The notes beneath the pieces were generated by a model. It did no database searches and had not been told where the DNA came from. It saw only the letters and a list, made by a program, of their open reading frames with translations. From Isurus oxyrinchus (Eukaryota), in the NCBI GenBank assembly GCA_026770705.1, contig JANJGN010000038.1, positions 10,292,001 through 10,356,000 of the forward strand: a DNA stretch of 64,000 bases, read 5' to 3'. This document shows positions 14,012 to 59,120 of the stretch, one piece after another; the stretch's first letter is position 1, and the number at the start of each line of letters is the position of its first letter. The position numbers were made by a program, and so were the translations under genes.

Positions 14012-14922
14012 TCATCTTTTAAATAATTTAACAAGCAGATTCAGTGGGAATTTCACACCATTCTTTAACTCTTCTCTGAATTTACTCTGGGTCCCTGCAT
14101 AAATAAATGGATTGACGCAAGAACTCAGGAGCTGAAGCATACGTGCGATTTCCTCCATAAGAAAATTTGATTCATTGAAATTGGAAGAGTCTACATAGCT
14201 AAGATTCGCAATTCGGACATAGAGGAAGTTTATAAGTTTTAACAAATATAACAGGATGAAACTGCCTGAGATACAGAAGAGCAAAACCATGGACTTCCTT
14301 CTTTTCTGCATCTCTGGGTCACTTTGATTCTCTCCATTGCTCTGGATCCGGAGTCTCCTGCGGGCTCGACTGGCCGTTACAATGTGTCTGATGGTCAGAG
14401 CATTGAGTAGTAAAATAAGGACGAATGAGAGGCAGAGGATTAACACGGCGATTATGCTTTCATAAGCGACCCATGCAGGTGATGTATAAAATGTTGATTT
14501 TGCCTTGCATTGCCAGGGTATATTGTCAATTATAAAGGCAGGCTCACACATAAAATACAAGGGGATGCTTTTAACACAGTTCAGTGCACAGACAGTTCCT
14601 ATCACCACAGCCGCCATTTTCTCAGTGCAATATTTAGTTTTCAGCTTCTGGCAGCAAATGGCTACAAATCGGTCAAAGGTGAAAGCCACTGTTACACAGA
14701 CAGAAGAATCGATGACACAATAAATTAGCACAAGTCTGAGGCTGAAGACCGGAGTGATGGACAAGAGACTGAATGGGAAATAAATACCTATAACCCGGTT
14801 TAATAACACAACTGTGATCCCGACAAGGAGATCCGTCACGGCCATGGACATCAGGTAGTAAGTGATACATTTTGCGAGACCGCATCTTCCTCGAGGCAGT
14901 ATCAGAATCACTGCCAGATTAG
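14012..14922 (-). CDS. GPR139/GPR142-like class A GPCR, gene 1, exon 2 (intact)
   Basis: Acceptor gtcacag|CT AAT CTG (phase 1); open to TGA at 14014-14012. Motifs NL..ILIL.RGRCGL, MAVTDLLV (TM2), FTFDRFVAICC (DRY), LLLNALTI (TM5), KSMVLLF (TM6), SSCVNPFIY (NPxxY), QSKFREEL (helix 8). With exon 1 gives 981 nt / 326 aa. Confidence 0.92.
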
Positions 14923-15399
14923 CTGTGACAGCGAAACGCAGCCAGTGAATATCAGATGTTGAGAAAGAAATTTATAACATAAAATGTTGGAAATTCTCAT
15001 TCAAGCAGCAGTTGAAAAGAGAGGAACAAGTTAGCATGTCAGAGAAATGATCTAGAGGAAAATAACCTAAAACACAGCAATCTGTTCTGTACTGTCAGCA
15101 ACACTAAGGGCTCACCCAAGGTGAACATTGAACGTCCTGGATTGTGACTCTGAAATACAATCAATGTTGTTCTCATCTAATGTTTAGCGACGGGAAAATA
15201 TAAGAATACTCTGAAACATTGGAAAATCGAAGGTTAACAAATACTTTACAGAGCTTGAAAAAAGTTCAGCAAAAAAAAAGCTAGTACTTAACTGAAAAGA
15301 AGATGAAGGAGATCTGATGCATCTTAGCTGCAACAATTCGAAGTTAAAGGAACAAGGCTTCACAGCCACGAGTAAAGCAGATCATGCTTACTCTGGATC

Positions 15400-15720
15400 A
15401 GGTGTGGCTCAATTTGTAGCAATCTCACTTTTGATTCAAAAGGTTTAGCATTCAAGCCCAACTGATGGACTTCAGCAACGTTGCACTGCCGGATATGCTA
15501 TATTTCAGCTAAAACAAAAGACTGAGGAACGATCCAATAACTCGTGAATACCAAATCTAACTTAAGAAATAGCTGTTATTCACATTCCAGCGCAAGGAGC
15601 AATATATGCACATGGCAAAGTGAGGTAATTCAATAGCTGTGAAAATAACACAATAGAGCTACATTTACAGCGTAATAAATCATCCATGGTGACAGTGCCA
15701 ATAATACAATTGATCTACAT
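15400..15720 (+). mobile_element. tRNA-headed SINE in intron of gene 1
   Basis: A/B-box-like gtggctcaatttgtagc...ttcaagccc followed by ..gcactgccggatatgc..gactgagg. Inverted relatives at about 21.1 and 23.0 kb. Confidence 0.45.
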
Positions 15721-16182
15721 TGCACTGTGATATTAGTGTGCTAAATACTTCGCCCACATTAATAATGACAATAACAACATCTAATTTCACTTAGACTGAG
15801 AGACCGCACTGCTAAGTGGGAGAAAATTTTTAATTAAAGAGATAAAAAGGCATTGGTGAAGCAAACATAGTAATCCCTGAAATGGAAGTAAGTATACTGG
15901 CAATGGGAAGAAACTGTTCTCGTGAAGGGGAGAAATGATACCCTTAAAGTGGAGAAAAGAGACCAGTAATGAGCAGTAATATTGCGAGGAAAGGGAAGGT
16001 TTAATATCAATTAAAAGAAGAATGCACTAAACGTAGAGATAAGGATACTGCAAAAAAGGGAAAACATTATAAATAACAAATTATCCTGTTAATGGGGTGA
16101 ACCATAGAGAAGCAATACAGCTAAATTAAAGAAGTGATAGAAAAATGATTCTGGTAACTGGTAACTAACCCTAATACTTTAC

Positions 16183-16252
16183 CTGGAATACCGATAGCTG
16201 CAAGAACGGGATAGTAAATGGCAAACACCAGACCTTCTGGTATCCCATGCAT
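16183..16252 (-). CDS. GPR139/GPR142-like GPCR gene 1, exon 1
   Basis: ATG at 16252 encodes MHGIPEGLVFAIYYPVLAAIGIP + G|gtaaag (70 nt, phase 1), joining exon 2 in frame to give TM1 ..GIPANL (GxxxN motif). Confidence 0.9.
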
Positions 16253-16303
16253 TTCTCTCAAAAGCTCCGAGTGTGCTCTGTGCTACACCGAAAGACTGTT
16301 ACA

Positions 16304-16400
16304 TTTATACATGATGTCGGCCTCTAGGGAGACAAAGGGAAGGTTTGGCCTTTTACATTAATTACACTAACTGAAAAAAAACATTTTAGTGCAGCTGCTG
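16304..16400 (-). promoter_or_regulatory. Proximal promoter of gene 1: TATA, EBF/Olf-like site, homeodomain site, E-box
   Basis: TATAAA (16309-16304) about 52 nt before the ATG; cctctagggaga 16321-16332; TAATTA 16359-16364; CAGCTG 16392-16397. Positionally conserved in the paralogs. Confidence 0.6.
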
Positions 16401-16739
16401 CCGCGCTCACATTTATGTTTTTGATGGAATAGAATCTGTTTTCAAGCACACTGGCGCGGCTCCAAATTGAAATAATCTGATAGGAGAGTACGGTCCAAGT
16501 TGCATTTTTTCCTAAAATTTAAATAACAAGCCAAACAAGCCATTGTAATTGTGAAAGTGAGCACTGTGCACGAGCATCCATGGCTTTAAACTCCGCAGGA
16601 AAACATTACAATGTTCTCACTCTTGATCATTTTTCAGGCCGTGTGAACACGGATCACGTGTAATGTGGCTCCCTTTCCCTTCTGGAATGAGGAACCAATC
16701 AGTAGCCATCCACCCTCAGCCTCTCTGCCTGCTTGGACG

Positions 16740-18240
16740 TCAACTCACGACGAAAAGCTTCTCAATTAACTCTGTAAATGAAACTCCAATGCTATGGGTG
16801 TTGGCATGTGTCCTATTTCTGTTTGGCTTTTAGATGGATTTGCAGCAGAATCATTGTTCCAGGCCCACTCAGGCACCTCCATCACACTTCTTCCTGGTAT
16901 ATTCATGACCAGATCAGTGTTGATCTCGTTCAACCCCTGAACTGGAAAATGAGGTTACGTTTGCTTTGGAATGTAACCCTCCCCATGCCCTTATTTGTTC
17001 CATGTTTGAAATTTATATTTCCTTCTGCAGCTTTGATGTGGACACATCGGGGAATTGGCTATGGCCCAATATTCAACAGAAGCTCACCAACACCCAGTTA
17101 TCTTGAATACACATCCATGCACATCTCTTACTGGAAAGGAACTTTTCTGTTCTCTCAGAATCTCAGTTTCTGCTGAATATGTTCGATTATCCCTTCTAGC
17201 TTTCTCCAATAGAGCTTCCAATTACTTCAGCCGAGTATTTCCAGCGCACCGTGGTTGACAGAACCCAGCGCCATGCATGTATCATGTCTCACACTTCTGC
17301 TTTCACACCTTCTCCCCCTCCAAGATCCACAATAGGCTTCTCCTTGCCCTTGCCTACCATTCAACACACCTCCAGTATCATTTGGTCCACCTCTGCATTT
17401 TCAAACACATCCGGCATGTTGTCACTGCCCAATATGTCCAAATCACCTCTACACCTTAATATTGAGAATGGGTCATTTGCTCCACTCCGCACTTGTCTCC
17501 TCCTCAAGCAATCCAACCCTTCCTTTTCTGAAGAACGTTCCCATGCACGCAATGAACATGCAACGCCTGCCCCTGCCTCCCTGCCCTTCTCTCTGTCCTA
17601 CGTCCCAAACAATGCTTCCAAATGGAAAATCGAATTGTTTGAACTTCTGTCCATTGAGTATACCCTGTTCACTGCTCAATATGCAGCCTGCTCTACATTC
17701 TGGAGGTTAAGTGTAGATTGGTGATCATTTCTCAGATACATCCGTTCAGTCCACAAGTGTGATCTTCTGGTCACTTGTCACCCTAATTATCTGTTCTGCT
17801 CTCACTTTAACATGGAGCATATGCTCCAGGAGTAAAATTTCATAGTTCCTTAAGGCACTTTCTAGGCTTTTGTATTTTCCATAAATTTCAACAATCGTGA
17901 TCACAACCACTGCATTCTTCTTCCTTCTTTGCTCTTTGTTGTTCCGTTGGGAAAACATTTGTTGATTTCGATTCTGTTATAGACAGTTTGCCGTCTTTTA
18001 GACATTCTGCTTCTGCTTTTCCTTGTTCCACTTTGACCTCCACCATCACTGCTTTTGTCATTTGAATTCTGCTGTTTTCCCCTTTGCCAGAAGCATCTCC
18101 TTTTGATCTTGCTTCCCCACATTCGTTTTTTGCCTCTATACTTGCATGAAAACTGTTCCGTCTGTTACTTTTGCCTGCTCTGATAAAAGGTCACATGCTG
18201 CCGGATATCTTGAGTATTTCCATCGTTTCCTGTTTAATTC
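16740..18240 (+). mobile_element. Penelope-like retroelement remnant (RT + GIY-YIG endonuclease + terminal repeat)
   Basis: Degenerate AMGxxMxP (16790s), YIxD (16898), LAYH, TFPC..TCNACP, CSICSLLYI.E..RLGDxF motifs; 3' ..ctctgataaaaggtcac..gctgcc..ttgagtatttcc. Confidence 0.75.
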
Positions 18241-18254
18241 CATTTAGGGTATTT

Positions 18255-19200
18255 ATATTCAGTGTAGAAATGTGCAGCTCGGCATGGTTATATTCACAGT
18301 GTGCACACCTAGTTTGGCATGGTTACTTCCATTTGGACTAGTTCAATTCAGTTAGTGTAGCCATGTCAATCCCGGCAATAACGAATGTGCACAGGTGTCT
18401 GAATGTACATTTTGTGTGGCAACATCCAGTTCAGGACGTGTGTGCTTCGTGCTTTCAGGCTAAGCTCAGTGCACTCACATTCAGAGAAGATAACCTCCTG
18501 TTGAGCACGATTAAATTAATGGTGGAGCACTCCAGATTGACATGGTTATGTGCCATGTAAAGAGTCCCGTCCAGCCCGCTTGCAATCACTGTTTAGTGGA
18601 AAACCAGTTTAGGGGTAAATCACGCTATTGTGACTGTCCAGTTCAGTAAATTGCATTAACTGAATTCAGGTTAATTTGCACACAGCTGCACTCAGTACGA
18701 ACAGGCCAATTTCTATCTTGTTACACTGAATGTACATAGATGACTATTAGCCCTGTTATTGTCAAGTTTGTCCGGTGGAACACAACAATGTACGATGTGC
18801 ACAGCCCCGGCTGTGAACAGTTTCTTTCTTGCTGTGGAAAATTTCACTTCAGCATGATTACTTTCCATGTAGAATACTCAATTTCATTACTGCTGTATTC
18901 GATAGAGAGAGGACCGGCTGGGCATGGTTATGTTTTGTGTAGACGTATTGAAGTCTGCTTGGTGCTAATGAATGTGTACATGGACATTTGCATTCAGAAT
19001 GGATTGGTTTAGTTCTGCATTCTTACTTTTAATATGAGCTTCTGTGGTGGACAGTCCCAACTGGTCACTGTTACTGTCAGCGTGAACATTTTAACTTCCT
19101 AGTGGCTATGCTTCGTGTGCAGATGGCTTGATCAATGAGCTTACATTCAATTTGCACAATTACAGTTCTGCAGCATGATTTTCAGTGCAGACTGATCTGG
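18255..19200. repeat. Degenerate ~33-35 bp tandem array upstream of gene 1
   Basis: Recurrent cagtgtgcaca..cagtt.ggcatggtta.attc units; reverse complement of the arrays at 29.2-29.6 and 31.9-32.35 kb. Confidence 0.55.
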
Positions 19201-19269
19201 GCCGGAGAGATTTTATTTATTGTGATTTTCCATGACAAAATCCAGGTCTATTTTTAATGATAAAGGAAG

Positions 19270-19530
19270 GCTCTTAGGCAAAGTACTAGGGGATGAGGAG
19301 GTTCTGGAGAATTTGGAATTGTCTTCTCCAGAAAACAAGACACGGCAGGGGCACTAAATATATTTAAGGCATAGTTATACAAATTATTGATCGACAAGAG
19401 ATCCAATGGTTACTCAGTCTGGCAGGAAAATGGAGTTAAGGCCAGGATCACATCAGTCATGAACTTACTGTATGTTGGAGCTGGATTGTTGGGTCGAAAC
19501 GCTTACAATGACTTTCATCTCTTTTGATCT
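19270..19530 (+). mobile_element. CR1 LINE 3' end remnant
   Basis: ..tggaattgtcttctcca..aatatatttaaggc..ggcaggaaaatggagttaagg..catcagtcatgaactt.. resembles the CR1 3' ends at 31.6-31.85 kb. Confidence 0.5.
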
Positions 19531-19559
19531 CAATGACTTCAAATAAATATCCAGCCATT

Positions 19560-20461
19560 GTCACTGTTTATGCCATTTGGCAATAGATTGAAAGAGTATT
19601 TAAACGCCCTTTTCAGCTCCGCTTTGTATTTAGTCTGGGTCCCTGCATATATAAATGTATTCTTACAGGATCTAAGGAGTTAAAAACACTGTCGGATTTG
19701 CTGCAGAATAAATTTTGTGTCAATGGAAATGGAACTGATAGATCAGCTATTTCCCATACTTTGTGCAAACAGGAAACGTACAATATGCGTCAAGGCCAGC
19801 TGGAGGAAACTGCCTGAAATGGAGAAGAGTACAAAAATAGACTTGCTGTGGCTCTTCATCTCTGAGTCACTCTGATTCTCTCCATTCCTGTGGGATCAGA
19901 GTCTGCTGCAGGATTTACTTACCAGTAGAATATTTCAGGATGTCTCAATATCGAGCAGCAAAGTCAGGAGAAAGGAGAGACAAGGGGTTAGAATACAGTC
20001 CAGCCAGTCAAACATTCTCCATGGAAATAAAATATAAAATGCATCATCTATGATAGAGTTACGTTGTTAACGATATAAATAAGTTCATACATGAAATAAA
20101 AAGGGGTGGCTATCAAAGAGGACTGCACACAGATCATTCTTAAATTTCCAGCTGCTGTTTTCTAACTGCAGTATTTCATTTTCAGCTCCTGGTGACAAAT
20201 GGCTAGGGAACAGTAAAAGGTGAACTTGAGGGTTGACCAGAGAGTACAACCTTTCGAACCAGAGTTTAAAGCAACAAGGACGACATAGAGGAATGGTGGA
20301 CAGAAAACTGACTGGAAAATAAACAGCCGGAAATGGGCTTAATGTCACGGTAATGCTAATGACAAGGAGATCTGTCACCACCATGGATACCAGATACTGC
20401 GTGATACATCAGGAGAAACCACAAATTGCTCGGGAGAAGATCACAATCATTAGAAAGTTAG
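19560..20461 (-). pseudogene. GPR139/GPR142-like GPCR pseudogene, exon 2
   Basis: Acceptor ttacag|CT AAC TTT; (A)NFLMIVIFSRAICGFS*CITQYLVSMVVTDLLV... with an in-frame TGA and several frameshifts; C-terminal SCKNTFIYAGTQTKYKAELK. No matching exon 1 found. Confidence 0.85.
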
Positions 20462-23400
20462 CTGTAAGGCAGAGAGCGAGAGAGAGAAAGAGGAGAGAGA
20501 GAGGAACAGAATTAGTGCTGAAACTCTCAGCTACACCTGCAGTTTGGTGGGAGAGGGTATGGAATTTATATCATGAATACTTGATTCAACGCTGGAACTG
20601 ATTAATTTAGTAACGTAGTGTGTTTTTTTTTATTAATATTGTCCCAAATACATTGGAAATTGGAACATGAAATAACACAAAACACTTATTTTCTGATTTC
20701 TGTAAAGTTTATGCAATCTAGAAGTAGCAGGAATTGAACAGGATTAACGTATTAAATAGACAAAAGGACAGCCTGAAGATGGCATAACGGACAGATAATA
20801 AATCAATACATTTAGTCGTTTAAATTCCGGTAAATAATAACGTTATGAAATGTTAAACCGCTATAATACTTAGAGCAATCGAATGACAGGAAATAAGATA
20901 TGGGTAATAACTTATTCCTAAGAAATAAATGAGGGAACCACGGGACGATGGAAAATAAAGTTGAACGAACGCCATTGATTCAATTCGGGTTTAGTTCCTG
21001 TGGAAACAGGTCAAACAGCATCAGCGGGTTTTTTTGCAGCTCAATGATTGCTGTAGTGGGAGATTAGGTCTCGTATTTTAGTGAAGATTTGTAATTGAAG
21101 AAGCAGAAAGTCCTCCGTTTAGAGTCTCATCAAACGAGCGACAGAGCAGGTAGTGCTGTCCTTCCTCAGGAGTATGCAGCTAGGTTAGGGACTCGAGATC
21201 GGGAGTAGGGCTCAAACCCAGGGCTTGAACACTGATATTTCAAAATGTAGATCCCCGAAATAAAGTGGCTGTGAGCATAATACATACTGGTTCCGATGAG
21301 TATCACACAGCCTTGACAACAAAATGCATCTTAGGAGAATTGAATGGGGCAGTTAACATTAGCAACAGAGTTAAAAAAAAAGTCTTCGTAACTGTTCATC
21401 GATTGCAACTATTTGATAAATTTACGAATAAACATGTGGAGGGTAAACAAAAATATGGAAAAATACATACCACTATCATTTATAGTTTCGCGCCAATTAG
21501 AACATATGCTGATCTGTAATGGTTAAGCTCAAAGCACCACAAAAAAAAACTCCCTCCCACAAATTATATTCCTTCTTCCACAGTTTGCTCATTCAGTTAT
21601 GCAACAACAACCCTTCGCAATGTCCTCTTCTTATCTAAAATATTTACTGTGCCACATGGCTTATTTTCAGCAGCAATTTGGATACGAAACTTACTATTGC
21701 TTAATTTCGAACCTTTAAATGCGGTGAAAAGCTGAGACCCAAATACAAATCTTGCGAATCAGCTGTCACACCCTGTCAATTGAAATGAATTCACTTTATC
21801 CATCAACAAATTAAATGAGCTTTGTACACACCACAGCCATCGCTATTTAAATTTATGTCGATATCAATATAAATTAACATCTAGGCATGTAAAATAAACG
21901 ACCTGTTTGACTAAGAAATTCAGGTGTTAATGACATTATTGAAGTAACAATTAAACTACATTTTGCAGCATTTGTATCATTGCCAAAAATTCCTTGAATA
22001 CAAGACACAGAAATCGTGGGAACACATAAAGCAACCTTGAATTCTTTGCTGTTGGAGGACAGCCAAACATCCGGAGAAGCTAAACAGTAGACATTTGACC
22101 CTCAAGGCTTCACAGTTAAAAAAAAGATGGAAAAGATTTAATTCCGGAAAAATTACGTAGAATACAATGAATTCAGATTCAGAATGTTTCTGTTTCCTAT
22201 TTTGAGTGATTCAGAAAACTGACTGTAAAAAAACAGCCGTAAACCGGCTTAATACCATTGTAATGAAAATACAAAGGAAATCTATCACCGCCATGGACAC
22301 TGCGTATCTAGAAAGACCACATCTTCCTCGGGAACGTTTCACGATAGTCAGAAAGTTAGCTCTAAGCTAGAGAGAGAGAGAGAGAGAGAGGAGAGAGTAG
22401 GGAAGAATTAGTGTTGAATTTCCCAGCTCCAACATCCGTTTTGCGGAAGAATGGTATGGCATCTGGACCATCAATACTTTATTCAACGCTGGAACTGATT
22501 AGTTTACCAATGTATAAATGCTGGTCCATTTTTTATTTATATTGTCCCAGATAAAGTGGAAGTCGGAATATAAAATGACACAAAGCACTTACTTTCCGAT
22601 TCCTGTAAATTTTATGTAATCTAGAAGTAGAAGGAATTGATCTTCACTAACGTATTAAATTGACAAAAGGACAACCTGAAAATGGCATAAAATACATATA
22701 AAATCTCAATTCATTTATTCATTTAAAAATAAGTAAATAATAACGTTATGAAACTTTAAACCACTATAATAATGAAACCAATCTAATGACAGGAAATAAG
22801 GTATGGGTGATAACGAATTCCTAATAAGTATCAGAAGGAACCAAGGTACGATGAAAAAAAAAATGAGCGAACACCTTTGACTAAATTTGGGTTTTGCCCC
22901 CGTGGAAACAAGTCAAAGCGCATCAAGGTCTTTTTTTTCAGTTCAGTGACTGCTGTAGTGGGAGATGAGGTCTCGCAGCTGTAGTGAGGATTTTCAACTG
23001 ATAAAGCAGAAAGACCTCGGTTTACAGCCTCGTCAGAAGGACGACAGAGTAGAAAGTGCTGGACTATCTCAGCGGCATGGAGCTGGGCTACAGACACGCG
23101 ATCGGAAGTAGGGAACAAACCCAGGGCTTTCCGAACGAACACTGAAATTTCAAAATTTAGCTCAGTTAAATAAAATGGCTACGAGTATAATGAATTCCGG
23201 CTCCGAAGCGTATCACACAGGCTGGACAACGAAGTGCACTACTAAGGAGAATTGAATGCAGCTGTTAACCGCAGCAACGGAGTTAAAAATGGTGATCATC
23301 ACAGTTCAGCGACTGCAATGATTGATGTTAAATTTACGCATTGTTAGTTGAACACCAATAAACATGTGGCGGGTAAACAAAAACATGGAAAATACTTACC

Positions 23401-24095
23401 ACTATCATTTATAGTTTCACCCTAATTAGAAAATATGGTGACGTGCAATGGTTAAGCTTAAAGCGCCAGAGAAAAACAGCCTTCCCCAAATGGTATTCCT
23501 TCTCCTACAGTTTGCTCATTCAGTTATCCAACGACAGCCCTTCGCAATGTTCTGTTCTTCTCTAAACTATTTAGTGTACCACATGGCTTATTTTCGGCAG
23601 CAATTTGGATACGAAACTTACTGCTGCTTCATTTTGATCCTTCTAAATGCGATGAAAAACAGGCCCACATACAAATCCTGTGAATCAGCTGGCACCGCCT
23701 GTCAATTGCACTGTATTCACATTATCCATCAACAAATTAGATGAGCTTTGTACACACCGCAGGCATCGTGACTTAAATTTACATCGATATCAATGTAAAT
23801 TAACATCTATGCATGTAAAATAAATGACCCGTTTAATGAAACAATTGAGGTGTAAATTACAATATTGAAGTACAAATTAAACTATATTATACATCATCTG
23901 TATCATTGTCAAAATTCCTGTCAACACAAGAAACAGCGCGCCTTGGAACATATAAATCAATCTTGAATGTCTTGCCCTTGGAGCGCAGCCAAAAACCGGT
24001 AGAAGCTAATAGTAAACATTTGACCCTCAAGGATTCACAGTTAAGCAAATGTTGATAAGAACTAGTTTTGTAAAAAAATATAGAATACAATGAAC
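20295..24095. repeat. Direct tandem duplication of ~1.9 kb (about 20295-22171 and 22205-24091)
   Basis: Colinear matches throughout, e.g. attcaacgctggaactgatt, caatttggatacgaaacttact, catcaacaaatta.atgagctttgtacacacc, catttgaccctcaagg, gaatacaatgaa. Confidence 0.9.
22205..22359 (-). pseudogene. Truncated GPCR exon-2 stub (5' ~155 nt) in second duplicate unit
   Basis: ttagag|CT AAC TTT CTG ACT ATC GTG..TCC CGA GGA AGA TGT GGT CTT TCT ..TCC ATG GCG GTG ATA GAT; ends abruptly at the duplication junction. Confidence 0.75.
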
Positions 24096-29600: not shown

Positions 29601-29619
29601 CATGTCGATGAAATCAGTG

Positions 29620-31187: not shown

Positions 31188-31264
<77 letters not shown>

Positions 31265-32908: not shown

Positions 32909-35266
32909 ATGCATGGATTGCCAAAATGTCTGATTTTCATCATATACTATCCCGTCCTTGCAGCGATCAGGATTCCAGGTTAAGGATTTTGGTTTGCTAT
33001 GTTATTGAAATCATTGTTTAATCACTTTTCTTTGGTTTGCTTTCATTTTAGTGAATCGTTGTTCGTATTTAGCAGCTTTGCTTCTGCATGGTACGATATT
33101 CTTTCTCCCAATAAACAGAACAATCTATCAACATTACGCGACATCTTTCCACTTTATCAGCTCGACAATGTCACTTCTTTCCACTTCAAGGGAAATGTTT
33201 AATTTAATTCTCCATTTTAGCAACAAAATTGTTTTCTTTTACTGACATGATTAGTCGTCATCACATGTCGAGTCGCTCAAGTTTTTCCGTGTCATTTCTT
33301 CCCTTGTACATAATTTCTCCCCAACGCCAGAATAATAGTTCAGCAGTAACAATGCACTATCTTCCCTGAGCTAGTAATATTTAGTCAGTTTAATTGGACA
33401 CTTTCATCTGTTTACCTCCACCGTTCGAGGTTTCAGATGTTATTTTATTTTATGCTTGGTGTTTTTAAAAAAGGTTATGTATAACGCTGTTACCACTGAG
33501 GAAATGTTTTTCTGTTGTGTCAATGGCATTCTCATCGTGTGTGAATTATTACAGAGGAACTGTATCTGTATTATCTCATGCATTTCCCTTTCACCTATCG
33601 CTCCGATATGAACAGTATTTATCTGATAAATTTGTGCAGAATATTAAATGACTGGCCGAGAGTTTATTGTCTTAGCGGAAACCTGGCACCCTGGGCGGTG
33701 AAGACTTCTCAGGGAGCTGAAGTTGGTCTTGAATCCAGGATCTTTTGACTCCAAAGCTAGACGACTTTCAACTTAGCAGCAATTGAACCTTTAACTGTGT
33801 GTGGATTTCCTCACTGCTGTGAAAGACAGTTGTGTTCGCTGCAGGTCATCATAACTCAGGAGTTGTAGTTACCCTTTATTTCCATCCAAAGGAGTTTTTT
33901 TTCCCATTTTAGCTGTTTTCATTTGCTGGATTATGCCCACAGCAGCATCACTTTGTATTTAATTCCATTCGAAGCCATCTACTGAGTTTCTGTCAAATTA
34001 TTAGGTCGATTTAACATTGTGTCCCTTCTGTTTTCCAATGTTCTATCCTGTTCTTCTCTAAACAGCAAGCAAGAGGATACTTGATCGTTTTTCAATGAAC
34101 TGAGTAAAAATTCTGCAATTTGAATATTCACTATAGGGCCGAGCCCGCATTCTTCCTGTAAATCAGCACAGTATTGACGATTTGCTGTATTTTGGAATGA
34201 GTCTTTCTTTCTCCACTGGAGCATATAAGTCATAGGACTGAAATGGGAACATTGCTCTCTTTTCATGACCGATGCTGTATTTGTGAGTTTCTCAATATTT
34301 TCTGTTCTATATTCATTTGTCCCCACCGCAAATTTACTGGTTATATTCCTCTGTCACAGCTAATTTGGCAGTAATTGTGATCCTGTCTCGAGGAAGATGC
34401 GGTCTCACTGGATGTATCACATACTATCTGATGTCGTTGGCCGTGACGGATCTCCTGATCATGATCCTTGCTGTGATGTTAAACCGGATTGTAGGTACAT
34501 ATTTCCCATTTAGTTTCCTTTCCATCACTCTGGCCTTTGCTCTCAGTCTTTTGTTCATATATGGCGTCAAGGATTCTTCTGTCTGGGTGACAGTTGCTTT
34601 CACCTTTGATTGATTTGTAGCCATTTGTTGCCAGAAGCTGAAAACCAAATATTGCACCACGAAATCGGCAGCTGTGGTCATAGGAACTGTCTGCGTTGTG
34701 CATTGTGCTAAAAAATACCCTTGTACTTTGCTTGTGAACCTTCTGTTATCACGGACAATACACCCTAGTACTGCAAACTAAAGCCAATATTGTATTCATC
34801 ACCCGGATGGGTGGTACATGACAGCATAAATGCCGTTTTAACCCCTTGTCTCCTATTTGTTCTTATTTTGCTGCTCAATGTTCTGACGGTCAGGCACATT
34901 GTTGTGGCCAGTCGAGCCCGCAGAAGACTCCGAGCCCACAGCAAGAGCGAGAAACAAAGCGACCCAGAGATGGAGAAGAGGAGAAAGTCCATCGTTTTAC
35001 TCTTTGCCATCTCGGGAAATTTCATCCTGTTATATTTCCTCGCTCTTAAAACTTTCCTCTACGCACGAATTGCCAGCGTTAGTTATTTCGATGGCTCGAA
35101 TTTCAATCAATCAAATGTTATACTGGAGGAATGCAGACTTATGCTGCAGCTTTTAAGGTCCTGCATCAACCCGTTTATTTGTGCAGGTACCCAGAGTAAA
35201 TTCAGAGAGGAGTTAAAGAATGGCTTGAAATATCCATTGAGTCTGATTGTTAATTTATTTAAATGA
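32909..35266 (+). pseudogene. GPR139/GPR142-like GPCR gene 2, pseudogene (exon 1 32909-32978; exon 2 34360-35266)
   Basis: Exon 1 MHGLPKCLIFIIYYPVLAAIRIP+G|gttaag; acceptor gtcacag|C at 34360. Lesions: TGA at the DRY arginine (34611-34613), a -1 frameshift near 34710, and TAG for Trp at 34766-34768. Ends SCINPFICAGTQSKFREELKNGLKYPLSLIVNLFK*. Confidence 0.92.
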
Positions 35267-47226: not shown

Positions 47227-47354
47227 ATTCGATAGACCGCATCTGGATTGAAGGCTATGAGGACGATAACGGGAACATCTGGACAATAGCTCCAACATTC
47301 ATTGCCCTGTTCTTCCTGAGAATTTTCGACAGCGCTGCCGTCACTCTGGTAAAG
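47227..47354 (+). pseudogene. Immunoglobulin heavy-chain TM1 exon, copy B (orphan, probably degenerate)
   Basis: Acceptor gtgtag|A, 128 nt, donor AAG|gtgaga. Encodes (D)SIDRIWIEGYEDDNGNIWTIAPTFIALFFLRIFDSAAVTLVK, with S>P, S>R and Y>D changes in the CART helix. No C exon seen in the preceding 12 kb. Confidence 0.85.
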
Positions 47355-47501
47355 GTGAGAATATTCAATCCTAGTGGATTGAACACTACAATCTGACAGA
47401 AGCGGTTTGAAAACTTTCTAAACATCTCAACAATTAAAAACTATAATATGAATGCACCAGATCATAAACATCTGCTTCATTATTTTCTGCCTCTTTTACA
47501 G

Positions 47502-47510
47502 ATCAAATGA
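47502..47510 (+). pseudogene. Ig heavy-chain TM2 exon coding part (IK-stop), copy B
   Basis: ctcttttacag|ATC AAA TGA; gives cytoplasmic tail KIK. Confidence 0.8.
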
Positions 47511-47941: not shown

Positions 47942-47947
47942 AATAAA
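47942..47947 (+). terminator. Putative polyA signal, IgH TM copy B
   Basis: AATAAA at the position homologous to 5881. Confidence 0.55.
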
Positions 47948-48899: not shown

Positions 48900-49110
48900 G
48901 GTAAACACAGAAAACGCTGAAATTATCAGCAGGTCTGATAGAATCTGTGGAGACAGAAACAGAGTGGTCTTCTCGAGTCGTTATGACCCTTCTTCAGATG
49001 GACTCGAAACATCAACTCTGTTTCTCTCTCCTCAGATGCTGTTAGGCCTGATGAGTTTTTCCAGCAATTTTTGTTTTTGTTTCAGATTTCCAGCATCCGT
49101 GGTATTTTGC
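48900..49110. mobile_element. Head-to-head Penelope terminal-repeat pair (palindromic)
   Basis: aaacacagaaaacgctg..tcagcaggtctg..atctgtggagacagaaacagagt..cgagtc versus gactcgaaacatcaactctgtttctctctcctcagatgctg..cctgatgagtttttccagcaatttttgttt. A second similar pair at about 49455-49695. Confidence 0.7.
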
Positions 49111-49749: not shown

Positions 49750-50180
49750 GCACATGGGATTGGGGATGATGTATTGAGATGGATAGAAAACTGGTTGTCA
49801 GACAGGAAATAAAGAGTAGGAAGAAACTGTTCTTTTTCTGAATGGCAGGCAGTGACTAGTGGGCTACCGCAGTGATCGGTGCTGGGACTACAGCTATTCA
49901 CAATATATATTAATCAATTAGATGCGGGAGCTAAATGTAATATCTCCAAATTTGCAGATGACACAAAGCTGGGTGGGAGGGTGAGCACTGAAGAGGATGC
50001 AGACATGCGTCAGTGTGATTTGGACAAGCTGAGTGAGTAGGCAAATGCATGGCAGATGCAATATAACGTGGATTATTGTGGGGTTATCCGTTTTGGTAGC
50101 AAAAACAGTAAGGCGGATTATTTTCTGAATGACTATAAATTGAGAGAGGGGAATGTGCAACGGGACCTGGGTGTCCTTGT
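49750..50180 (+). mobile_element. CR1 RT fragment
   Basis: HGIGDDVLRWIENWLSDRK..WQAVTSGLPQ.SVLGLQLFTIYIN..ISKFADDTKLGG..WQMQYNV. Confidence 0.9.
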
Positions 50181-50384
50181 TGTTTCAGCAGAATGGATGT
50201 GTGAGTGAATCACTTGTAGCCACCGGAGCAACTGAACAACTGCTTCCCAGTGGGAACAGACAATTAGAGTTTCGGCGGATCCATTCTTTCTTCTGTTGTT
50301 CGTCCAGTGCTGTAAACATCATCCCAGGCATTTTCTGCTATGCCCCCGCCCCCTCCACACCGACAGGGAGATCCTGGTGTATTG

Positions 50385-50750
50385 GTAATGTCACGATGCG
50401 GATAAGCTAAAAAGACTGAAGAAATGTTCAAACCCCGTTACAGCAACTGGCTGAATTTCCGTCAAAAAATCAGGAGTTGAAACCCTTTCACGAATGGGGA
50501 TGATTTCGGTCTAAATATGAAATCTCCGGTAATCTCCAAGAATTCCACACATTCTGGCTGCTCCACGAGATTCCATACTCACAGCAATGTGGCTGGTCCT
50601 GAAATAGTCTGGACACCGTGAGTTATATCAAACCGCTGCAGTCAAGCCAGACCGGATGGAGCACTTCTCTTCAAGAACGTCCCCACCAACAACTTATCCA
50701 GGGAAATGAGGGATGGCAATAAACACTGGCTTTGTCCACAATGCTCCCTT
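50385..50750 (+). mobile_element. HE1-like SINE, degraded
   Basis: ggtaatgtcac..gttcaaacccc..cacagcaatgtggctg..ctgaaat..agggaaatgagggatggcaataaac. Confidence 0.55.
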
Positions 50751-50784
50751 CAAATAAACAATGCAAAAAAAATCCAAACCTATT

Positions 50785-51800
50785 GCATGGAAACAGAGGA
50801 ACAGGAGAATGCCATTCAGCCCATCGAACCTGTCCCGCCTTTCATTGTGATCATGGATGACCTTCCACTTCAACATCTTTTTCCCGCACTATCCCCATAC
50901 CTTTTATATCTTTGGTATTTAGAAATCTGCCATTATCTGCTTTAAACAAAATCAATGATAGAACTTCCACAGCTCTCTGGGATGCAGAATTCCAAAGGTT
51001 CGCAAACTTCTGAGTAAAAAAGCAATTCTCCTCATGTCAGTCGTAGTGGCTTTCCACTTATTTTGAAATTGTGTCCCCTGGTTCTAGAATCCCCAACCAG
51101 GGGAAATATCTGACCTGCGTTTACAATTTCTTCCATTCAGGTGTTTTGTTTGTGTTAATGAGATATTTTTGCTCATTTTTCGAAACTCTAGAGAATACAG
51201 GTCCAGTGTCCCCAATCCTTCTTCACAGGATAGTCACGCCATCCCTGAGGCAAGTCTGGTGAGCCTTCGATTCACTCCCTCAATGACAATTACAGCCTTC
51301 CGAAGGTAAGGGGGCCACACCTGCACATTGTACCCCAGGGGTGGCCTAACCAAGATTATATACAAAGGAAACGAGACTTCGCTGCTGTATCCAAATCCTC
51401 TTGTGATAAAGACTGACATTCCATTCGCCTTCCTAAGTGCTTCATATGTATGTGAAGTTTCAGAGACTTATTGATGGGGGCACCCAGGTCCCCTTGCACA
51501 GCTACATTTTCTCGGATCTCACGTTTTATGAAATAATCTGCACATCTGCTGATCTTACCAAACTGGTTAACCTCACATTCTTCCAGGTTAAATTTAATCT
51601 TTTCTGTTCTGTCCCCATCACTAAGTCAGTCCAAATCGCCTTGAAACTGCTTTTCACCTTCCTCACAACACACGTTCCCATCAAGCTTTGTGTCATCCTC
51701 GAACTTGGAAATATTACATTTGACGCACACATCCAAATCATTGCTACGTTGTGAACAGCTGGCTCTCAAGTGGTGTTCCTTGCAGTACCCCACTGGTGAC
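50785..51800 (-). mobile_element. CR1 LINE RT C-terminal half + 3' end
   Basis: Minus strand: LYIILVRPPLGYNVQVWPPYLRK..IEGVNRRLTRL; SKFEDDTKL; 3' UTR inverted at 50785-51000. Confidence 0.85.
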
Positions 51801-52703
51801 ATGCTGACAAAGTTTGATATTTCACTCTAAACACCTCCCCCCACCCCAGCACCACAAACCCCACAACAAAAAAACCCCACTTAGGCCGCCAGCCCCCCTC
51901 ACCCCACACCTCACACTTTGAAATGACATGCTTCAGTTACTGCTGCAGCAGGAGGAAGCCTTTGGATTTCTTAGAGTATCACAACACTGATGGAAGCCCT
52001 TGAAGCATTCGTCTGTTTCTCGCTACACAAAGGTAGCGAGGGCTGCTGATTATTCCCAGCCTTTCTGTTTTTTTTTTCAGATCCGAGCACATTGGCCCCC
52101 CCTCTCTCTCCTCTCCTGAACATCCTTTTTCAGGCTGGGTTCAGAGTGACATTTGAATTGACGAATTTCACTGGAACATAACTTATGCATTGGAAATACA
52201 CCATTATTTGAAACGAGGAGACTTGCCGCTCCGAGGTTCTGTAACTGTTCAGCTCTAATAACACTGGAATAAAATCACAGAAAGAATTTGAAAAGCTAAA
52301 ATCACTGACCTTCGAACCTCTAGAAACCACCCTCCCATCTGCAGATTGGTCCGAAATGTTTTGAACAAGGTTTCCCTGTGATACTGCAGCATGTCCGCCC
52401 ATGGACTGTAACCTGCCTGAGTGGCCTTCTCCTCCAAAACCCCTTTGCGTAATGACATGAAACTCGAGCCTGGTGGGTGGGAATTTCACACACCATGCCC
52501 AAGGACAGCAGGAGAGTTGGAATAGCCTGAAAACCAGCAGGACAAACAGGACTGAGGTAAATTACTTCCCAAATGCACCGCTTCTGTTAGTCATTGAATC
52601 CTGGCGGTGAAAGATGAAAACTGGCCTCACCCTGTGCTCATCACCGAGGTGAAGAGATTGGGAATAAAACAGGGTCAACTCGTGTTGATAATGGATATTC
52701 TTG

Positions 52704-53600
52704 TCACTGTTTAATAAATTTAACAATTACAGAAAAGGAATATTTCACCACATTCTTCAATTGCTGAATTGAGTCTGGGTCACTGCATAAATGGCCGTGT
52801 TAGTGCAACAACTCAGGAGCTGAAATATAAATCCCAGTTCCTGCACAAACCTAGGAAGGTATACAGGAATAGCATCTAACAAATATGGCCTATTACAAAC
52901 AAAATGTATCATAAAACTACCCACAACAGGATAAAATTCCCCGATAAAGCAAACAGTAAAATGATGGATTTCCTGCGTTTTTCCATCTGTGGGTCCCTGG
53001 GTCTCTCCCCACTGCAGTGAGCCCAGAGTCTCCTGCGGCCTCTGCTCAACACTAAACTATATCTGACAGTTAAAGCGTTCAACATCAAAATCAAAACAAA
53101 TGGCGCAAATGGTGTTAAAATATAATGAAGACATTCGATTGATGCCCACATTGATGAGAATTCAGCATCCGTCACTAATGTGCAAAACCAAGGAGCATTG
53201 GAAAGTGAATATTGACCTACATACATAAAGTACCAGAATGTGTCCTTCACACAGAATAGCAGACTGACTGTTCCGAGAACCACAGCTGCCGTATGCTCGG
53301 TGCAATATTTTGTTTTCAACTTCTGGGAACAAATAGCCAGAAATCTATCAAAGGTGAAAGAGACTGTGAACCAGACAGAACAATCTGTGGCTGCATAAAG
53401 CAGGACTGCATGGATATTACACACTTTAAACCTCGACAAGAACTGAAACTGAGCCCAGTAAAGAATAGCAATTTGCCTGAATATGAGATCAAGGATAACG
53501 ACCAGTAGATCCGCGGTTGCCATGGACACCAGGTAAAGGGAAAGACATTTTGAGAGACCGCACCTTCCCGGAGACAGGGTCACAATAGTCAGTATGTTCA
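52704..53600 (-). pseudogene. GPR139/GPR142-like GPCR gene 3 (divergent subfamily), exon 2, frameshifted
   Basis: Acceptor ttacag|TG AAC ATA; TM1-TM6 open (MATADLLV, KVC, DCSVWFTVSFTFDRF, PWFC, TPFAPF). A frameshift in TM6 gives TGA at 52911-52909; the shifted frame continues FIFQLLSCCTNTAIYAVTQTQF, then a second shift to QLKNVVKYSF..KQ* (52706-52704). Confidence 0.88.
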
Positions 53601-54989
53601 CTGTAAGGAAGAGAAAGGCATGATAGTTATTGTTTAACTTAGAGCAACGGTTACAGACTGATGGAGTGACATTTGAACAGAGTTATCCAAGGTCAGAATC
53701 TAATTACTTTACCAGTGCTTCAGCTTTATGCTGGAGGGAGTGTTTCGAGTTAAACACCATCCTGTTGTAGCAGGAAACCAAATCCTGCAGCAGGTCCCAT
53801 CGCCACTTCCCTAAATTATTCATGGAATTCGGAGTGAAAATCACTCACCCCATTACTAGTCCTGCTCAATATCCCATGAACATGCTGCAAACTGCATCAC
53901 AACGATATGTAAGATGGGCTGTGATTTGTACTGAAGGGAAATTGTTCATTTATTTTTGAGAAGACATTTGAGTGGAACATTAAGGTTGTGTAAAGAAGTA
54001 AATACAGATTTGATTTCAGAAATTGTATTTCAAATCAGGATGTCCAAATGTGCCTTCCTGATAATTATTGCCTTCGCCAAAAGGCACAATGAACGCTTAG
54101 ACTTTATCCCAGTAACAAATAGACTCTCGAAAAGAAATAAAGAACAGGGAGGTAAATGGATCGCTAGACTGAAGAAAATAAATTAGAGATTGAATCAGAG
54201 CTGGATATTGGCCAACACGAAGGAACAGCAGAGAGTGGCAGCACCCAAACTTCAGGCTGGCAAGCAGGAGATAATTTACCAATGGATCGGATATCTGTGT
54301 TTTGGGCCAGGAATTAAATGGGCCAGTGGTTGGGAAATGAAGTTGTTACATAAGAATGCAAGAACTAGGAGCAAGAGCAAGCCATATTTCCCTTTGGTCA
54401 ACTCTAATATTCACTAAGCCCATGGCCATTCTTCGACATCTACTTTCCAAAACTATCCCCATTTATCTTAATGGCCTTAGAGCAGAAAGATCTACCGACC
54501 AACAGCCCTCGAGAGTTGATAATTCCGAAATTTCTCCACTTGCTAAGTAAAGAAGATTCTCTTCATCTCAATTCCAAATGGCCGACATCTTATCTCAGGG
54601 ATCGAGTTCTCGACTCCCCACCTAAGGGAAACATTCTCTCAGCATCGATGCTATGAGGACACTGAATGATTTTCTATGACACGATGCGATAATCACACAT
54701 CCTCTAAATTTAAGAAAATGCATGTCAAATTTGATTGATTGATTAATTACTTAAGTATATTTTTCCTTAGGCCAGGAGGCCAAAACTGTACACATTAATC
54801 GATATGTTTTCTCACCAATCACATGCATAATTCTATCAAAAGTTCCTTACTCGAATACAGGGAACACTGTCATTTATTATCCTATTCACTTGCTATATTG
54901 TTGTATCCTAACCTCATTACAGCTTTGTTTCAAACATGGAAAAAAGAGCGGAACTCCCGGAGGAAGGTGAGACATCAGGGCAACATTTG

Positions 54990-56130
54990 GCAGAGTGTAG
55001 CATCAAGGGCCCCTAGCAAACCTGGAGTCAATGGGAATCAGGGGGAAATCTCTGCTGCTTCTAACCATACCTAGCAGAAAGGAAGATGGTTGTGTTTGTT
55101 GGGGGTCGATCACTCAGCTGTAGGATTTCACTGCAGCATTCCTTCAGGGTACTGTCCTCGGCCCAACCATCTTCAGCTGCTTCATCAATGACCTTCCTTC
55201 CATCACACAGTCAGAAGTGGGATGTTCGCTACTGATTTCACAATGTTCAGCGCCATTAACGACTCCTCAGGTACTGAAGTAGCCCATGCTCAAATGCAGC
55301 AAGAGCTGGACAATTACCAGGCTTGCGCTGACATGTGGCAAGTATCTTGTGCACCGCTGAAGTGTCAGGCAATGATCATCTCCAACAAGGGAGAAACCAA
55401 CAATCGCTCTTTGTCATTCAATGGCATTAACATCACTGAATCCCCCACTATCAAATCCTGGGGTTTACCATTGACCAGAAACGGAACTGAACAGAAACGG
55501 AACTGAACGAGCCATATAAATACTATGGCAACAAGAGCAGATCAGAGGCAAGGAATAGTGCGACGTGTAACTCACCTCCTCACCGCCAAAGCCTGTCCAC
55601 CATCTGCAAGGCACAAGTCAGGAGTGTAGTGAAATGCTCCTCCCTTGCTTGGATGGGTGTAGCTCCCAGAACGCTCAAGAAGCTTGGCACCATTCAGGGC
55701 AATGCACCTCGCTGGATTGGTAGCACATCCAAAAATATTTACACACTCCACCACTGTTGCATAGTAGCACCAGTGGTGCCATCTACAAGATGCACTGCAG
55801 GAACTCATCAAGGCTCTTTCAGCTGCACGTTCAAACCCCGACCACTACCATCTAGAAGGAGAAGGGGAGCAGACAGATGTGAACGCCACCAAACGGAAGT
55901 TCCCCTTCAAGTCACTCACCATTTTGACTTGGAAATATATCGGCGTTCCTTCACTGTCGCTGGGCCAAAATCCTGGAATTCCCTTCAGAACAGCACTCTG
56001 GGTGCGCCTACACCCCGAAGACTGTAACAGTTCAAGAAGGCAGCTCAGCACCACATTCACAAGGGCAACTAGTGATGGGTAATAAATTCTGACCCAGCCA
56101 ACGAAGCCCATTTCCCAAGAATGGATAATA
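54990..56130 (+). mobile_element. HER1-like LINE RT + 3' tail inserted in the gene 3 intron
   Basis: IPQGTVLGPTIFSCFINDLPSI..MFATDFTMF..LAWMGVAPRTLKKLGTIQ..; tail cagttcaagaaggcagctcagcaccac..aagggcaactagtgatgggtaataaat. Confidence 0.9.
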
Positions 56131-56459
56131 ATAACACATATTGCATGTTCGCTTTCTCTAGATTGTGTACCCGAGCACACAAATTATGAAAATTTACAAT
56201 TTTTACCAGTTTCTCGCCTGTTTAAACGCTGGCTGAGGATAGAATGAAACTCGTCTGTGTTATTATCTCAGGGAATCTGAAGGTTCTGGTGCAATATTAA
56301 CACAGGGCTTTGATGCGTGTGTAAATTAATACGTGAGATAATTCATAAAATTAATGGTCCTGGCCTCCCATTTAGTGGCGATACTCGGATAATCAGTGCT
56401 GATTGTAAATGTAATTAAAGCCCTATCTTTTTCCACCCTTGCAGCTTGTTTTTCTTGCC

Positions 56460-56960
56460 TACGTAGCGGGGTGGGGGAGATGAGGTGTGCATGAGGTGCG
56501 TAGATGGCGGGTGGTCAGCAGTTGGGATAGGGATGGGTGAGTAGTTAACGTGCTTTGCAGTCGGTTGGGGGTTGAATGGACGGGCGATGGCTAGTGAGAG
56601 CTGTGCAAGTGGATCGAGAGGAAGGCAATCGAGTCAGATTAGGTATTCTGGGGTCAGTAGTTGGGGGTGTTGTGGGTTGTTGTGTGTGAGATTAATGTGG
56701 GAGGTCTGTAGGTGGGGGTTGGGCGTGCATGGGCTTCGCTTGAAAGTTATACACTGACACATGCTAGAAATTAATAGCGGGAAAATACTAGGGCAAGCAT
56801 CTGTCACACAACAGGCACAACAGTCCAAAACTGAAGTCAGTGTTGGAGTCATTGTTAGAGGGGCCTGGGCAATACAAATCTACCCATCTGAAGTTTAAAG
56901 TTCATGGGAAATTACCATGCATGCTCCTGGATCAAGACTTCAGATGGGTCCTGATATGCA
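56460..56960. repeat. Third, more degraded member of the G-rich-arm repeat family
   Basis: G-rich tract, then cccatctgaagtttaaagttc (about 56883), matching cccatcggaagtttgaagttc (about 9903). Confidence 0.45.
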
Positions 56961-58870
56961 GTGCGGCAGACATTTCAATATTCACCACTGTTGGCATCAG
57001 GAGCTCCGGTTAATGATACAGTCAGTATTAATTTCACGGCAATGGACTCCAGACACCAGCTGCAGATAGAGGGAAATTACGCAAGAGCGGAATGGAGATC
57101 AGGTCAAAGAAGGCTGGCTTAGGGCGAATAACAATAAAGAACACATTTTAAGAATTATCTTAAAGGATGATAAGTTTGTAGCGAGGACAAAGGATTTAGG
57201 AGGAAATTCAGAACATGAAACTCTTAATATTTCATTGTGGTCACGCATGCCAAAGGCTGCAGACATGTCGAGAAAAGGGAAGAGAGGCAGCTCGACATTA
57301 GCAGAGTCACATCAGATATAATTTGTGCCTTTGTTAAGGACGGTGTAAGAGTTGTAATAAGGGAGAAAAATGGTTAGAAGGATTTAAGCATGGTGTCCCT
57401 GGAAGATGGGGCAGAAACGTGGGGGGTAGCAGCAGGGACAAGGAATTTGTAGAGGAAAGAGAGGTTAGAGATGGAGTGTTTGCTTACAAGGACGGAGGCA
57501 TAAGGGGTTGTTTATTTACAAGGTCAGGGGTGATGACTACAGAATGGAGCAGCAGAAGAACAGTGGCTAAGCAGAAGGAACTATTAACTATATCACCAAC
57601 TGAGGAACATGAGAAGGAAGTTCGGTGTTCAGCTGTTTGGTGGCAGTGCGGTGAACCAGTCCCCACCAGCAGCCGCCCCTCCGCCCACACCCTACACCAT
57701 GCCTACCACCAAACCAATCAAACGCCTGGAAATCTCACACCTGAAACATAATGGAACGCTCACTACTCATCAGTATGGTTATCAGAGCAACACCCAATAA
57801 GCAGAATCACCTTCAATAATGGAATAGATTTTCCATCAGTGTCCGTCCATCATTAAACTTGCTATTTCTCCACCTCCACCTCTGTGGATGGAGAAGAATG
57901 TCTACTGAATCAACAACAACAACACACCGGGGCTACTTCGACAGCACGTACCAGGACAGCAAAATGCAGAAGGTGTGCAATGCCGTGAGATTCACCTTCT
58001 CTAACGCACCATCCTGACTTGGAACGGTAACATCTCCCTTCATCAGCGTTCCGGAATTCCCTAACAGCAGGTAGGAGAACAGTCAGCAGAGGGAATACTT
58101 CAGCTCAGCAAGAAGACTCAGCACCAACTTCTCAGTTCACTTCCGGATGGGTAATAAATGGAAGTTTGTCACAAGCATCCATTTCCCAAGGACACATTTT
58201 GAAAATAGAAAAAACTTTGGGAGGGGGATAATGACTTGCAGCTCTAAATATCGTCATGCAGAGACAAGGGAAGGAAATTAGGTCTGTGGACAGAAATGGG
58301 AACGGAGCCAATTGTTGGTGAGGGGAGCAAGTATTGTTGAACAATTATTACATTTTAAATTCTCTCCTAAATATCTAAATTTGGTTATTGTTAGGCAAAG
58401 TGGGAGATGGTGGAATGGAATTTGCCTGGAGCTGAATCATTATGTGAGATCTTCCCTCGTTCCTGTCTGCCCTAATTTCCGCAGATCAGTGCAAATTACT
58501 ATCTGCATCACACTGCAAAACCAATACCTGCGCAACATATTCTGCTCAGATATTGGGGTTCAGTTTAAACAGCCGACTGCAGTTGTTCAATAGCTTTAAT
58601 TCTTCACTAATATTTATTGCGTAAAATATTTAACCAGCCAAATTCTGAAGAAAAAAAAAATACTTGAAGCAAGTCTTGAGATGTACAAACGGTCCAATGA
58701 ACTGTGAACAGTGAATCAGCAACTGCTGAAATGCTACTTCACAGAAGCACAGGCATGTCACAGGCCACAAGAATTACAGAGAATAAAATTAATTAACTCA
58801 TATTAAGGACAAGGACAACAAATATGGTGAAAGATGTTTTATAAAATAAGTTTCTAAAATAATCTTTCAC

Positions 58871-58967
58871 CAGGAATGCCAACAGCAGCGAGGAGCGGAT
58901 AGTAAATACTTTGCAAATCATAAATCATCCAGAAAATTCGAAGTTCTGTTGGTATTTCAAAGAACAT
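58871..58967 (-). pseudogene. GPCR gene 3, exon 1
   Basis: MFFEIPTELRIFWMIYDLQSIYYPLLAAVGIP+G|gtgaaa (97 nt, phase 1) joins 53600 in frame (GIPVNIL); intron about 5.3 kb. Confidence 0.85.
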
Positions 58968-59072
58968 GATCTCATTTTCTGTGAGGTCCAATGATCGCTG
59001 TTTTTATTGGAGACTGCACTCTGTCGAACACTGATACACATTGAAAACATTGCCTAGATGTAGGCGGAGTAG

Positions 59073-59120
59073 AGCCTCTGGTGATTCAATTAAACAATAC
59101 ACTAGCTGATATTAATTACA
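59073..59120 (-). promoter_or_regulatory. Conserved promoter module of gene 3
   Basis: cctctggtgatt-caatta (59075-59092) and attaattaca (59111-59120), at the same offsets as in genes 1 and 2. Confidence 0.5.

Follow-up and report, generated by a model that had tools for sequence, protein, structure and literature searches.

A surprisingly large family of orphan class A receptors in cartilaginous fishes, hidden under the label "probable GPR139"

What kind of receptors are crowded together in a short stretch of shark DNA under the name of a single-copy amino-acid sensor? The stretch analyzed here, referred to as the window, comprises 64,000 nucleotides of the Isurus oxyrinchus genome (C38:10.29-10.36 Mb) and harbors five related G-protein-coupled receptor (GPCR) loci in both orientations, one of them an intact gene (gene 1) and the others damaged (loci 2 to 5). 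Proteins of this family carry the NCBI name "probable G-protein coupled receptor 139". The original prediction, made from the sequence of the window, placed these five loci correctly, as re-annotation confirmed, and proposed a lineage-expanded birth-and-death receptor family with a link to tryptophan and phenylalanine sensing. The analysis described below shows that behind the automatic label stands a genuine orphan GPCR family of surprising size, whose anatomy resembles that of a repertoire.

How large is this family? Two independent degenerate DNA motifs were searched across the genome as exact matches, with reversed motifs as controls. Motif 1 gave 1,693 matches (reversed control, 0) and motif 2 gave 1,869 (reversed control, 4), and all six single motif-1 matches that were checked proved to be family members, three of them open. 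Annotation covered 1,204 kb of contiguous sequence on eight contigs, with 804 kb at known matches or at an immunoglobulin (Ig) cluster and 400 kb placed blind on contigs known to bear matches, one blind stretch having none. With matches spanning <600 bases dropped and an open locus defined by an exon 2 of ≥290 codons, 24 of the 49 sampled loci possessed an open exon 2 (one shortened at its C-terminus) and 25 were broken. Motif 1 was present in 29 of these 49 loci and motif 2 in 26, while 21/35 motif-1-positive and 18/26 motif-2-positive loci were open. Extrapolation from this non-random sample yields ~2,900 (2,400-3,700) or ~3,500 (2,800-4,700) loci in total and ~1,020 (740-1,260) or ~1,290 (930-1,560) open motif-positive loci, the latter estimate resting on exon 2, with exon 1 and splicing examined for part of the loci. 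The motif counts, together with the mixture of broken and open loci, substantiate the proposed birth-and-death expansion, and the few copies genome-wide that would have spoken against it are exceeded by a wide margin. Among public proteins, 1,883 clusters at 90% identity match the family at E≤1e-10, a number that may include other receptors beyond the top 120; the best 120 of the 1,883 are all from sharks, with 83 from one horn shark species.

Are these receptors simply copies of GPR139 or GPR142? Gene 1 matches Pfam 7tm_1 with E=2e-21 (77 bits vs the curated cut-off of 30.5), the sole Pfam family above cut-off, and GPR139 is the best PDB match of the family profile (E=1e-13; 54 bits vs 49 for the TRH receptor). 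The phase-1 acceptor within transmembrane helix 1 (TM1) also lies at the same codon in the family, in the genome's GPR139, and in a gene on C6. True GPR139 and GPR142 are each single copy in this genome, on C15 and C22 (the GPR142 label is based on tree position and a 56% match to GPR139 in sequence identity), and gene 1 is 21-22% identical to them. In a midpoint-rooted tree of 54 rows with three long branches, the 36 family rows group into one clade (95/88), and its sister (100/100) is an amphibian and sturgeon gene (P0230, P0416), with GPR139/142 and a second conserved subtype, found in coelacanth, shark, teleost, amphibian, and reptile, outside both. Direct orthology to GPR139/142 was rejected on the basis of the separate clade, the low identity, and the true single copies elsewhere, and the sequences identify the family as a separate, non-orthologous lineage.

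The amphibian/sturgeon sister gene is represented by one cluster per species among 21 bony-vertebrate matches, and this search returned none from teleosts or amniotes. Named family members come from sharks, skates, a stingray, and Callorhinchus, with skate and shark members in shared subclades; because the Callorhinchus protein is nested within the family, the latter is older than the chimaera split. Two proteins of the conserved single-copy subtype (P0282 and P0380) carry the name "transmembrane protein 183A isoform", which suggests a location of this gene next to or inside TMEM183A in the shark and the frog.

Which parts of these receptors are held constant and which vary? Among 124 family proteins, RGRCGL is found in 79, KL(K/R)x(K/R)YCT in 87, DPxMxxRR(K/R)S in 71, and TQxxF in 110; these correspond to the intracellular motifs singled out in the original prediction. 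Of the class A hallmarks, D2.50 is present in 100% and the DR(F/Y/C) motif is retained; NPxxY occurs in 86/124 and NTxxY in 31/124, the P6.50 pattern in just 11/124, and a Cys at the top of TM3 in 121/124, with a Phe at this place in gene 1. A structure predicted with low confidence (predicted local distance difference test score, pLDDT, of 58) was matched by Foldseek to many class A receptors without ranking them, and the helix limits of this model were used solely to partition residues.

The binding pocket tells a different story from that of GPR139, in which Trp and Phe are recognized by E108, F109, H187, W241, R244, and N271 (PMC7318219, PMC12775434). The genome's own GPR139 and GPR142 retain all six residues. 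In the family, F109 is found in 15%, N271 in 10%, W241 in 35%, and H187 in 44%, and E108 and R244 are outside the four commonest residues at their positions. The proposed link to Trp/Phe sensing is thus not borne out, since the family is non-orthologous and most members have replacements at four of the six core positions of the pocket. Among 36 diverse family members, 13 pocket positions (leaving out W166 because extracellular loop 2, ECL2, aligns poorly) show an identity of 0.29 vs a helix mean of 0.51 (P=0.0006), compared with 0.80 (P=0.07) and 0.96 (P=0.0004) at the same positions in two single-copy clades, where the pocket is instead the conserved part, the latter value belonging to the amphibian/sturgeon sister gene. 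Likewise, identity is 0.34 in the extracellular half vs 0.59 in the intracellular half of the family, a contrast that is missing from the controls (0.59/0.58 and 0.82/0.69). A variable pocket combined with a conserved intracellular face is the pattern that would be expected of many ligands feeding one transducer. The C6 gene mentioned above (C6:157837664-157841515, L124), a further single-copy GPR139-related gene with a long branch and ERY for DRY, retains the equivalents of E108, H187, and R244.

How did so many loci come about? At least 39 copies of gene 1 at 87-100% identity were found among the 131 matches listed (130 of 7,927 candidates were scored), and 35 of the 39 are open and full length. 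Also present in the window are two orphan immunoglobulin M (IgM) heavy-chain transmembrane exon pairs, one at 5.2 kb and the other at 47.2 kb, neither of which the original prediction had mentioned. The first (5164..5440, plus strand, with TM1 at 5164-5291 and TM2 from 5432) belongs to a repeated cassette: all 24 copies of the orphan transmembrane exons that are ≥91% identical sit within 10.5 kb of an opposite-strand gene-1 copy, and 25/27 locus-5 copies sit 30-42 kb from a gene-1 copy. Given this fixed spacing, the window is one copy of a ~50-kb cassette that has been repeated at least 24 times, and this amplification inflates the gene count. The surroundings of the window include IgM clusters. 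The second pair (47227..47510, plus strand) is accompanied by 1.7 kb that matches an intact IgM cluster at its 3′ end (84%).

More distant copies of the transmembrane exons (86%) sit ~5.8 kb behind Ig C1 domains, which indicates that those of the window derive from IgM. One such place lies on the same contig (C38:9.52-9.54 Mb), where a cluster contains a heavy-chain variable (VH) domain, C domains, a secretory tail, and transmembrane exons, and probably represents IgM as judged by reading its sequences. An intact Ig gene around the transmembrane exons of the window was rejected, as the surrounding 264 kb yielded no V or C domain, and so was an arrangement of one receptor per Ig cluster, since ~89 kb separate the IgM cluster from the closest family locus found. 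Among the contigs with Ig C1-set matches, C20, C21, C26, C38, C42, C100, C126, and C146 all carry family members.

Several further features of these Ig sequences were noted. Some cassette copies agree at 99-100% in the orphan transmembrane region (window 5160-5445) but differ by ~7% in the introns of gene 1, a combination suggestive of gene conversion, of a mosaic make-up of the cassettes, or of constraint acting on an exon without visible upstream Ig domains. An open Ig V-type frame at C38:9608249-9608686 (plus strand, L098), located 66 kb beyond the IgM cluster, continues directly into a J-like segment and looks germline-joined. Near-identical Ig C1-set arrays are present at C16:85.8-88.5 Mb (~24) and C36:1.5-3.7 Mb (~11) among the top 150 matches.

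Within the window, gene 1 lies on the minus strand. Its exon 1 (16183..16252) starts with the ATG at 16252 and spans 70 nt, that is 23 codons plus 1 nt, encoding a short N-terminus and the start of TM1 before a GT donor kept in 30/30 copies; it splices to the AG acceptor of exon 2 (14012..14922) to give an open 326-aa protein. A TATA-like box of putative function (16304..16309, minus strand) is found ~55 nt upstream of the ATG, and locus 4 likewise has a similar box upstream. Besides the Phe at the TM3 Cys position, which all 28 gene-1 copies examined share, 13 of these copies carry a Cys for a conserved TM3 Trp, though the ratio of nonsynonymous to synonymous differences (pN/pS) of this lineage is 0.35. 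Locus 2 is represented by exon 2 (19575..20461, minus strand), a heavily decayed pseudogene with 6 indels and 7 stops in the gene 1 frame; an exon 1 was searched for and not found. The exon-2 stub of locus 3 (22203..22359, minus strand) lies inside a 1.9-kb tandem duplicate that overlaps the start of locus 2 (20301-22171 vs 22212-24094, 78% identity) and is therefore no independent birth.

Locus 4, on the plus strand, consists of an exon 1 (32909..32978) ending in phase 1 and an exon 2 (34360..35266) which in the window is a pseudogene with 2 internal stops and one 1-nt deletion causing a frameshift; among its ~25 presumed cassette copies, recognized by position and frame length, 6 are full length and stop-free. 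Locus 5, on the minus strand, has an exon 1 (58871..58967) of 32 codons plus 1 nt and an exon 2 (52704..53600) frameshifted by 1-nt and 4-nt deletions relative to an open copy. It belongs to a divergent subfamily, the open copy being 46% identical to gene 1, and 18/26 of its copies are open and 8/26 broken, five of the broken ones sharing the 895-nt length seen in the window. The proposed picture of one intact gene, three independent pseudogenes, and a stub therefore stands in that loci 2, 4, and 5 bear different lesions, but the lesion of locus 5 is not private and the stub is not independent.

The phase-1 acceptor inside TM1 is indeed common to all five loci, where the AG precedes an ANxx/VNxx codon, and all three exon 1s end in phase 1. 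The very short N-terminus holds for the exon 1s of the window but not for the most amplified subfamily, which has long exon-1 frames. In this subfamily (C93:841850, C51:887867, C110:432542, and others, L155-L184), these frames contain ~14-residue repeats in varying number, and many of the repeats include an N-glycosylation sequon; with translation starting at the first ATG, the N-termini would span ~30 to 180 aa. A sixth, broken family locus lies just upstream of the window, and a weak Myb/SANT-like domain match below cut-off (61077-61613, minus strand, E=0.005) is presumably a transposon remnant.

What could such a family be for? The explanation we prefer, with a probability of roughly 0.4, is that this very large cartilaginous-fish class A GPCR family is a repertoire of peptide or small-metabolite sensors that share one G-protein pathway and operate most likely in leukocytes or barrier tissues. 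One ancestral gene, still single per species in amphibians and sturgeon, would have diversified into subfamilies with different pockets before the shark/ray split; multi-gene cassettes would then have been duplicated repeatedly, and individual copies would have decayed at random. Each subfamily would bind a different ligand and signal through a common transducer, for which Gq/11 is a guess by analogy with GPR139, an aromatic amino-acid sensor coupled mainly to Gq/11 (PMC7318219). Peptide or aromatic ligands may be expected from the wider receptor group (PMC8557429). The immune setting is the weakest step and draws on the genomic neighborhood and on unlabelled RNA-like runs. In its favor, the 24/24 close copies of the orphan IgM transmembrane exons lie ≤10.5 kb from a gene-1 copy, the IgM cluster is on the same contig, and family members occur on the eight contigs named above for their Ig C1-set matches. 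Moreover, family-like paralogue contigs covering exon 2 were found in 5 of 6 runs, from four studies, that are unlabelled for tissue and whose RNA status was guessed; none was found on the gene-1 stretch in run X10, and a search of sequencing runs listed no RNA run for gene 1 itself.

A number of observations weigh against this sensor repertoire, beginning with selection on recent copies as estimated from pairwise and distinct-variant counts. pN/pS is 0.35 (0.24-0.49) for 28 of the 30 gene-1 copies, two broken ones being dropped, and 0.58 (0.40-0.89) for the 18 open of 26 locus-5 copies, in sets that comprise top-scoring open copies and thereby bias the ratio downwards. Positive selection on recent copies was rejected, with pN/pS <1 in every pooled set, and these copies are under purifying rather than diversifying selection; the pocket diversity is therefore old and lies between subfamilies. 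No difference emerged between the two faces, as gene-1 copies gave 0.37 for the extracellular part vs 0.34 and four small cassette sets, when pooled, gave 0.56 vs 0.55 (Fisher P=0.64). The predicted divergence of ligand-facing residues thus exists between the older subfamilies, while recent copies lack the extracellular excess of nonsynonymous change that it had also implied. The gene-1 lineage may in addition be impaired, the TM3 Cys being missing in 28/28 copies examined.

Numbers and neighborhood invite similar caution. Many loci are cassette copies 89-99% identical to each other, and because recent growth proceeded by cassette copying, distinct specificities must be fewer than loci. Of 30 gene-1 copies, 10 have a neighbor <0.5% away and 20 do not, from which ~1/5 of the copies could be uncollapsed allelic duplicates. 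The association with Ig covers just part of the family: 740 kb of sequence from C21, C34, C47, C51, C70, C93, and C110 yielded no Ig domain, and neither motif list of the family contains the C1-rich contigs C13 and C16. As for transcription, the joint between exon 1 and exon 2 was not seen in the guessed-RNA contigs, and one high-depth contig continues from an exon 1 into intron-like sequence. A high-depth exon-1 paralogue contig found no place in the genome or the annotated loci. The guessed-RNA contigs could be DNA carry-over of a multicopy family.

The same evidence can be read differently. Segmental amplification in duplication-prone regions, where Ig clusters also lie, might have carried most of the thousands of loci along as passengers, leaving a modest set of functional subfamilies. 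The whole window being a cassette, the fixed spacing of the 24/24 transmembrane exon and 25/27 locus-5 copies from gene 1, the copying of dead loci and orphan Ig exons along with live genes, the 25/49 broken loci, and pN/pS values reaching 0.49-0.58 in young sets are all in keeping with this account. Set against pN/pS below 1 in every pooled set, at least 35 of 39 gene-1 copies open among the matches listed, many distinct paralogues in other shark species, and subfamilies common to sharks and skates, we regard it as somewhat unlikely, though it deserves serious attention. Extra GPR139/GPR142 copies sensing tryptophan and phenylalanine would explain the best PDB match, the intron at the codon of GPR139, and the NCBI name, but this idea is highly improbable and already largely refuted by the 21-22% identity and by the true single GPR139 and GPR142 elsewhere, which keep all six pocket residues that the family has mostly replaced.

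An unrecognized chemosensory repertoire serving nose, taste buds, or skin, in which each neuron would sparsely express one receptor, is unlikely in our estimate. In size and pocket variability the family is comparable to odorant-receptor-like families, no more than 20-62 complete olfactory receptor (OR) genes are known from cartilaginous fishes despite many olfactory neurons (PMC10869828), and there is a weak Pfam match to the nematode Srw chemoreceptors, below cut-off (E=0.0014), with Srw-bearing clusters in the Atlas. Nevertheless, the four unlabelled studies with family-like contigs are presumably not all olfactory, and the olfactory neurons of catshark already express V2Rs (PMC11979771). 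The bolder proposal of a seventh vertebrate chemoreceptor family, a missing main repertoire of sharks and rays with ~1,000 receptors, or 20-30x the known olfactory set, seems doubtful.

Why does this family matter? Cartilaginous fishes are reported to have the smallest OR repertoires among vertebrates (20-62 complete genes, mean 43.8; PMC10869828), and catshark has 2 canonical ORs and 32 annotated V2Rs (PMC11979771). If the family is sensory, the account of shark chemoreception changes; if immune, it amounts to an extensive array for innate sensing, set between antibody clusters. A ligand could be approached through the single-copy amphibian relative, and existing tissue RNA-seq suffices as a test. 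The literature search returned no description of the expansion, although supplements, subscription journals, and theses may mention it, and the accessible parts of shark-genome and chemoreceptor papers (PMC11979771, PMC10869828, PMC12294341, PMC10620051, PMC10116579, PMC10115646, PMC7677710, and PMC10529500) contain no description of the family. As the genes are already in public annotation under an automatic name, the novelty lies in recognizing the family, its size, and its ancestry.

How, finally, does the family compare with known systems? GPR139 and GPR142 resemble it in the class A fold, the two-exon layout, and the codon of the phase-1 TM1 intron, but GPR139 lacks the TM3 and ECL2 cysteines that the shark family has and occupies one locus vs thousands. 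MRGPR and FPR receptors form lineage-specific tandem clusters of immune or sensory peptide GPCRs with variable pockets and are much smaller; no close sequence relationship between them and the shark family was seen. The amphibian/sturgeon "probable GPR139" gene shares the DPEMxxRRxS motif, yet it is single copy with a conserved pocket, in contrast to the expanded and variable shark family. It is possibly one of the extra GPR139/142-related sets described in coelacanth, gar, and other fishes, some named GPR210A/B, in a study whose accessible part does not cover sharks (PMC6504862). The protostome MIP, proctolin, FMRFamide, and RGWamide peptide receptors are sister to GPR139/142 (PMC8557429) and, like nematode Srw (PMC3963977), belong to the same broad group with independent expansions; they form a distant outgroup in the tree, and their ligands are not transferable. 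A parallel in anatomy is offered by the OR, TAAR, V1R, V2R, T1R, and T2R families (PMC10869828), which differ in ancestry and share with the shark family birth-and-death clusters, pseudogenes, a variable pocket, a conserved intracellular face, and a comparable size.

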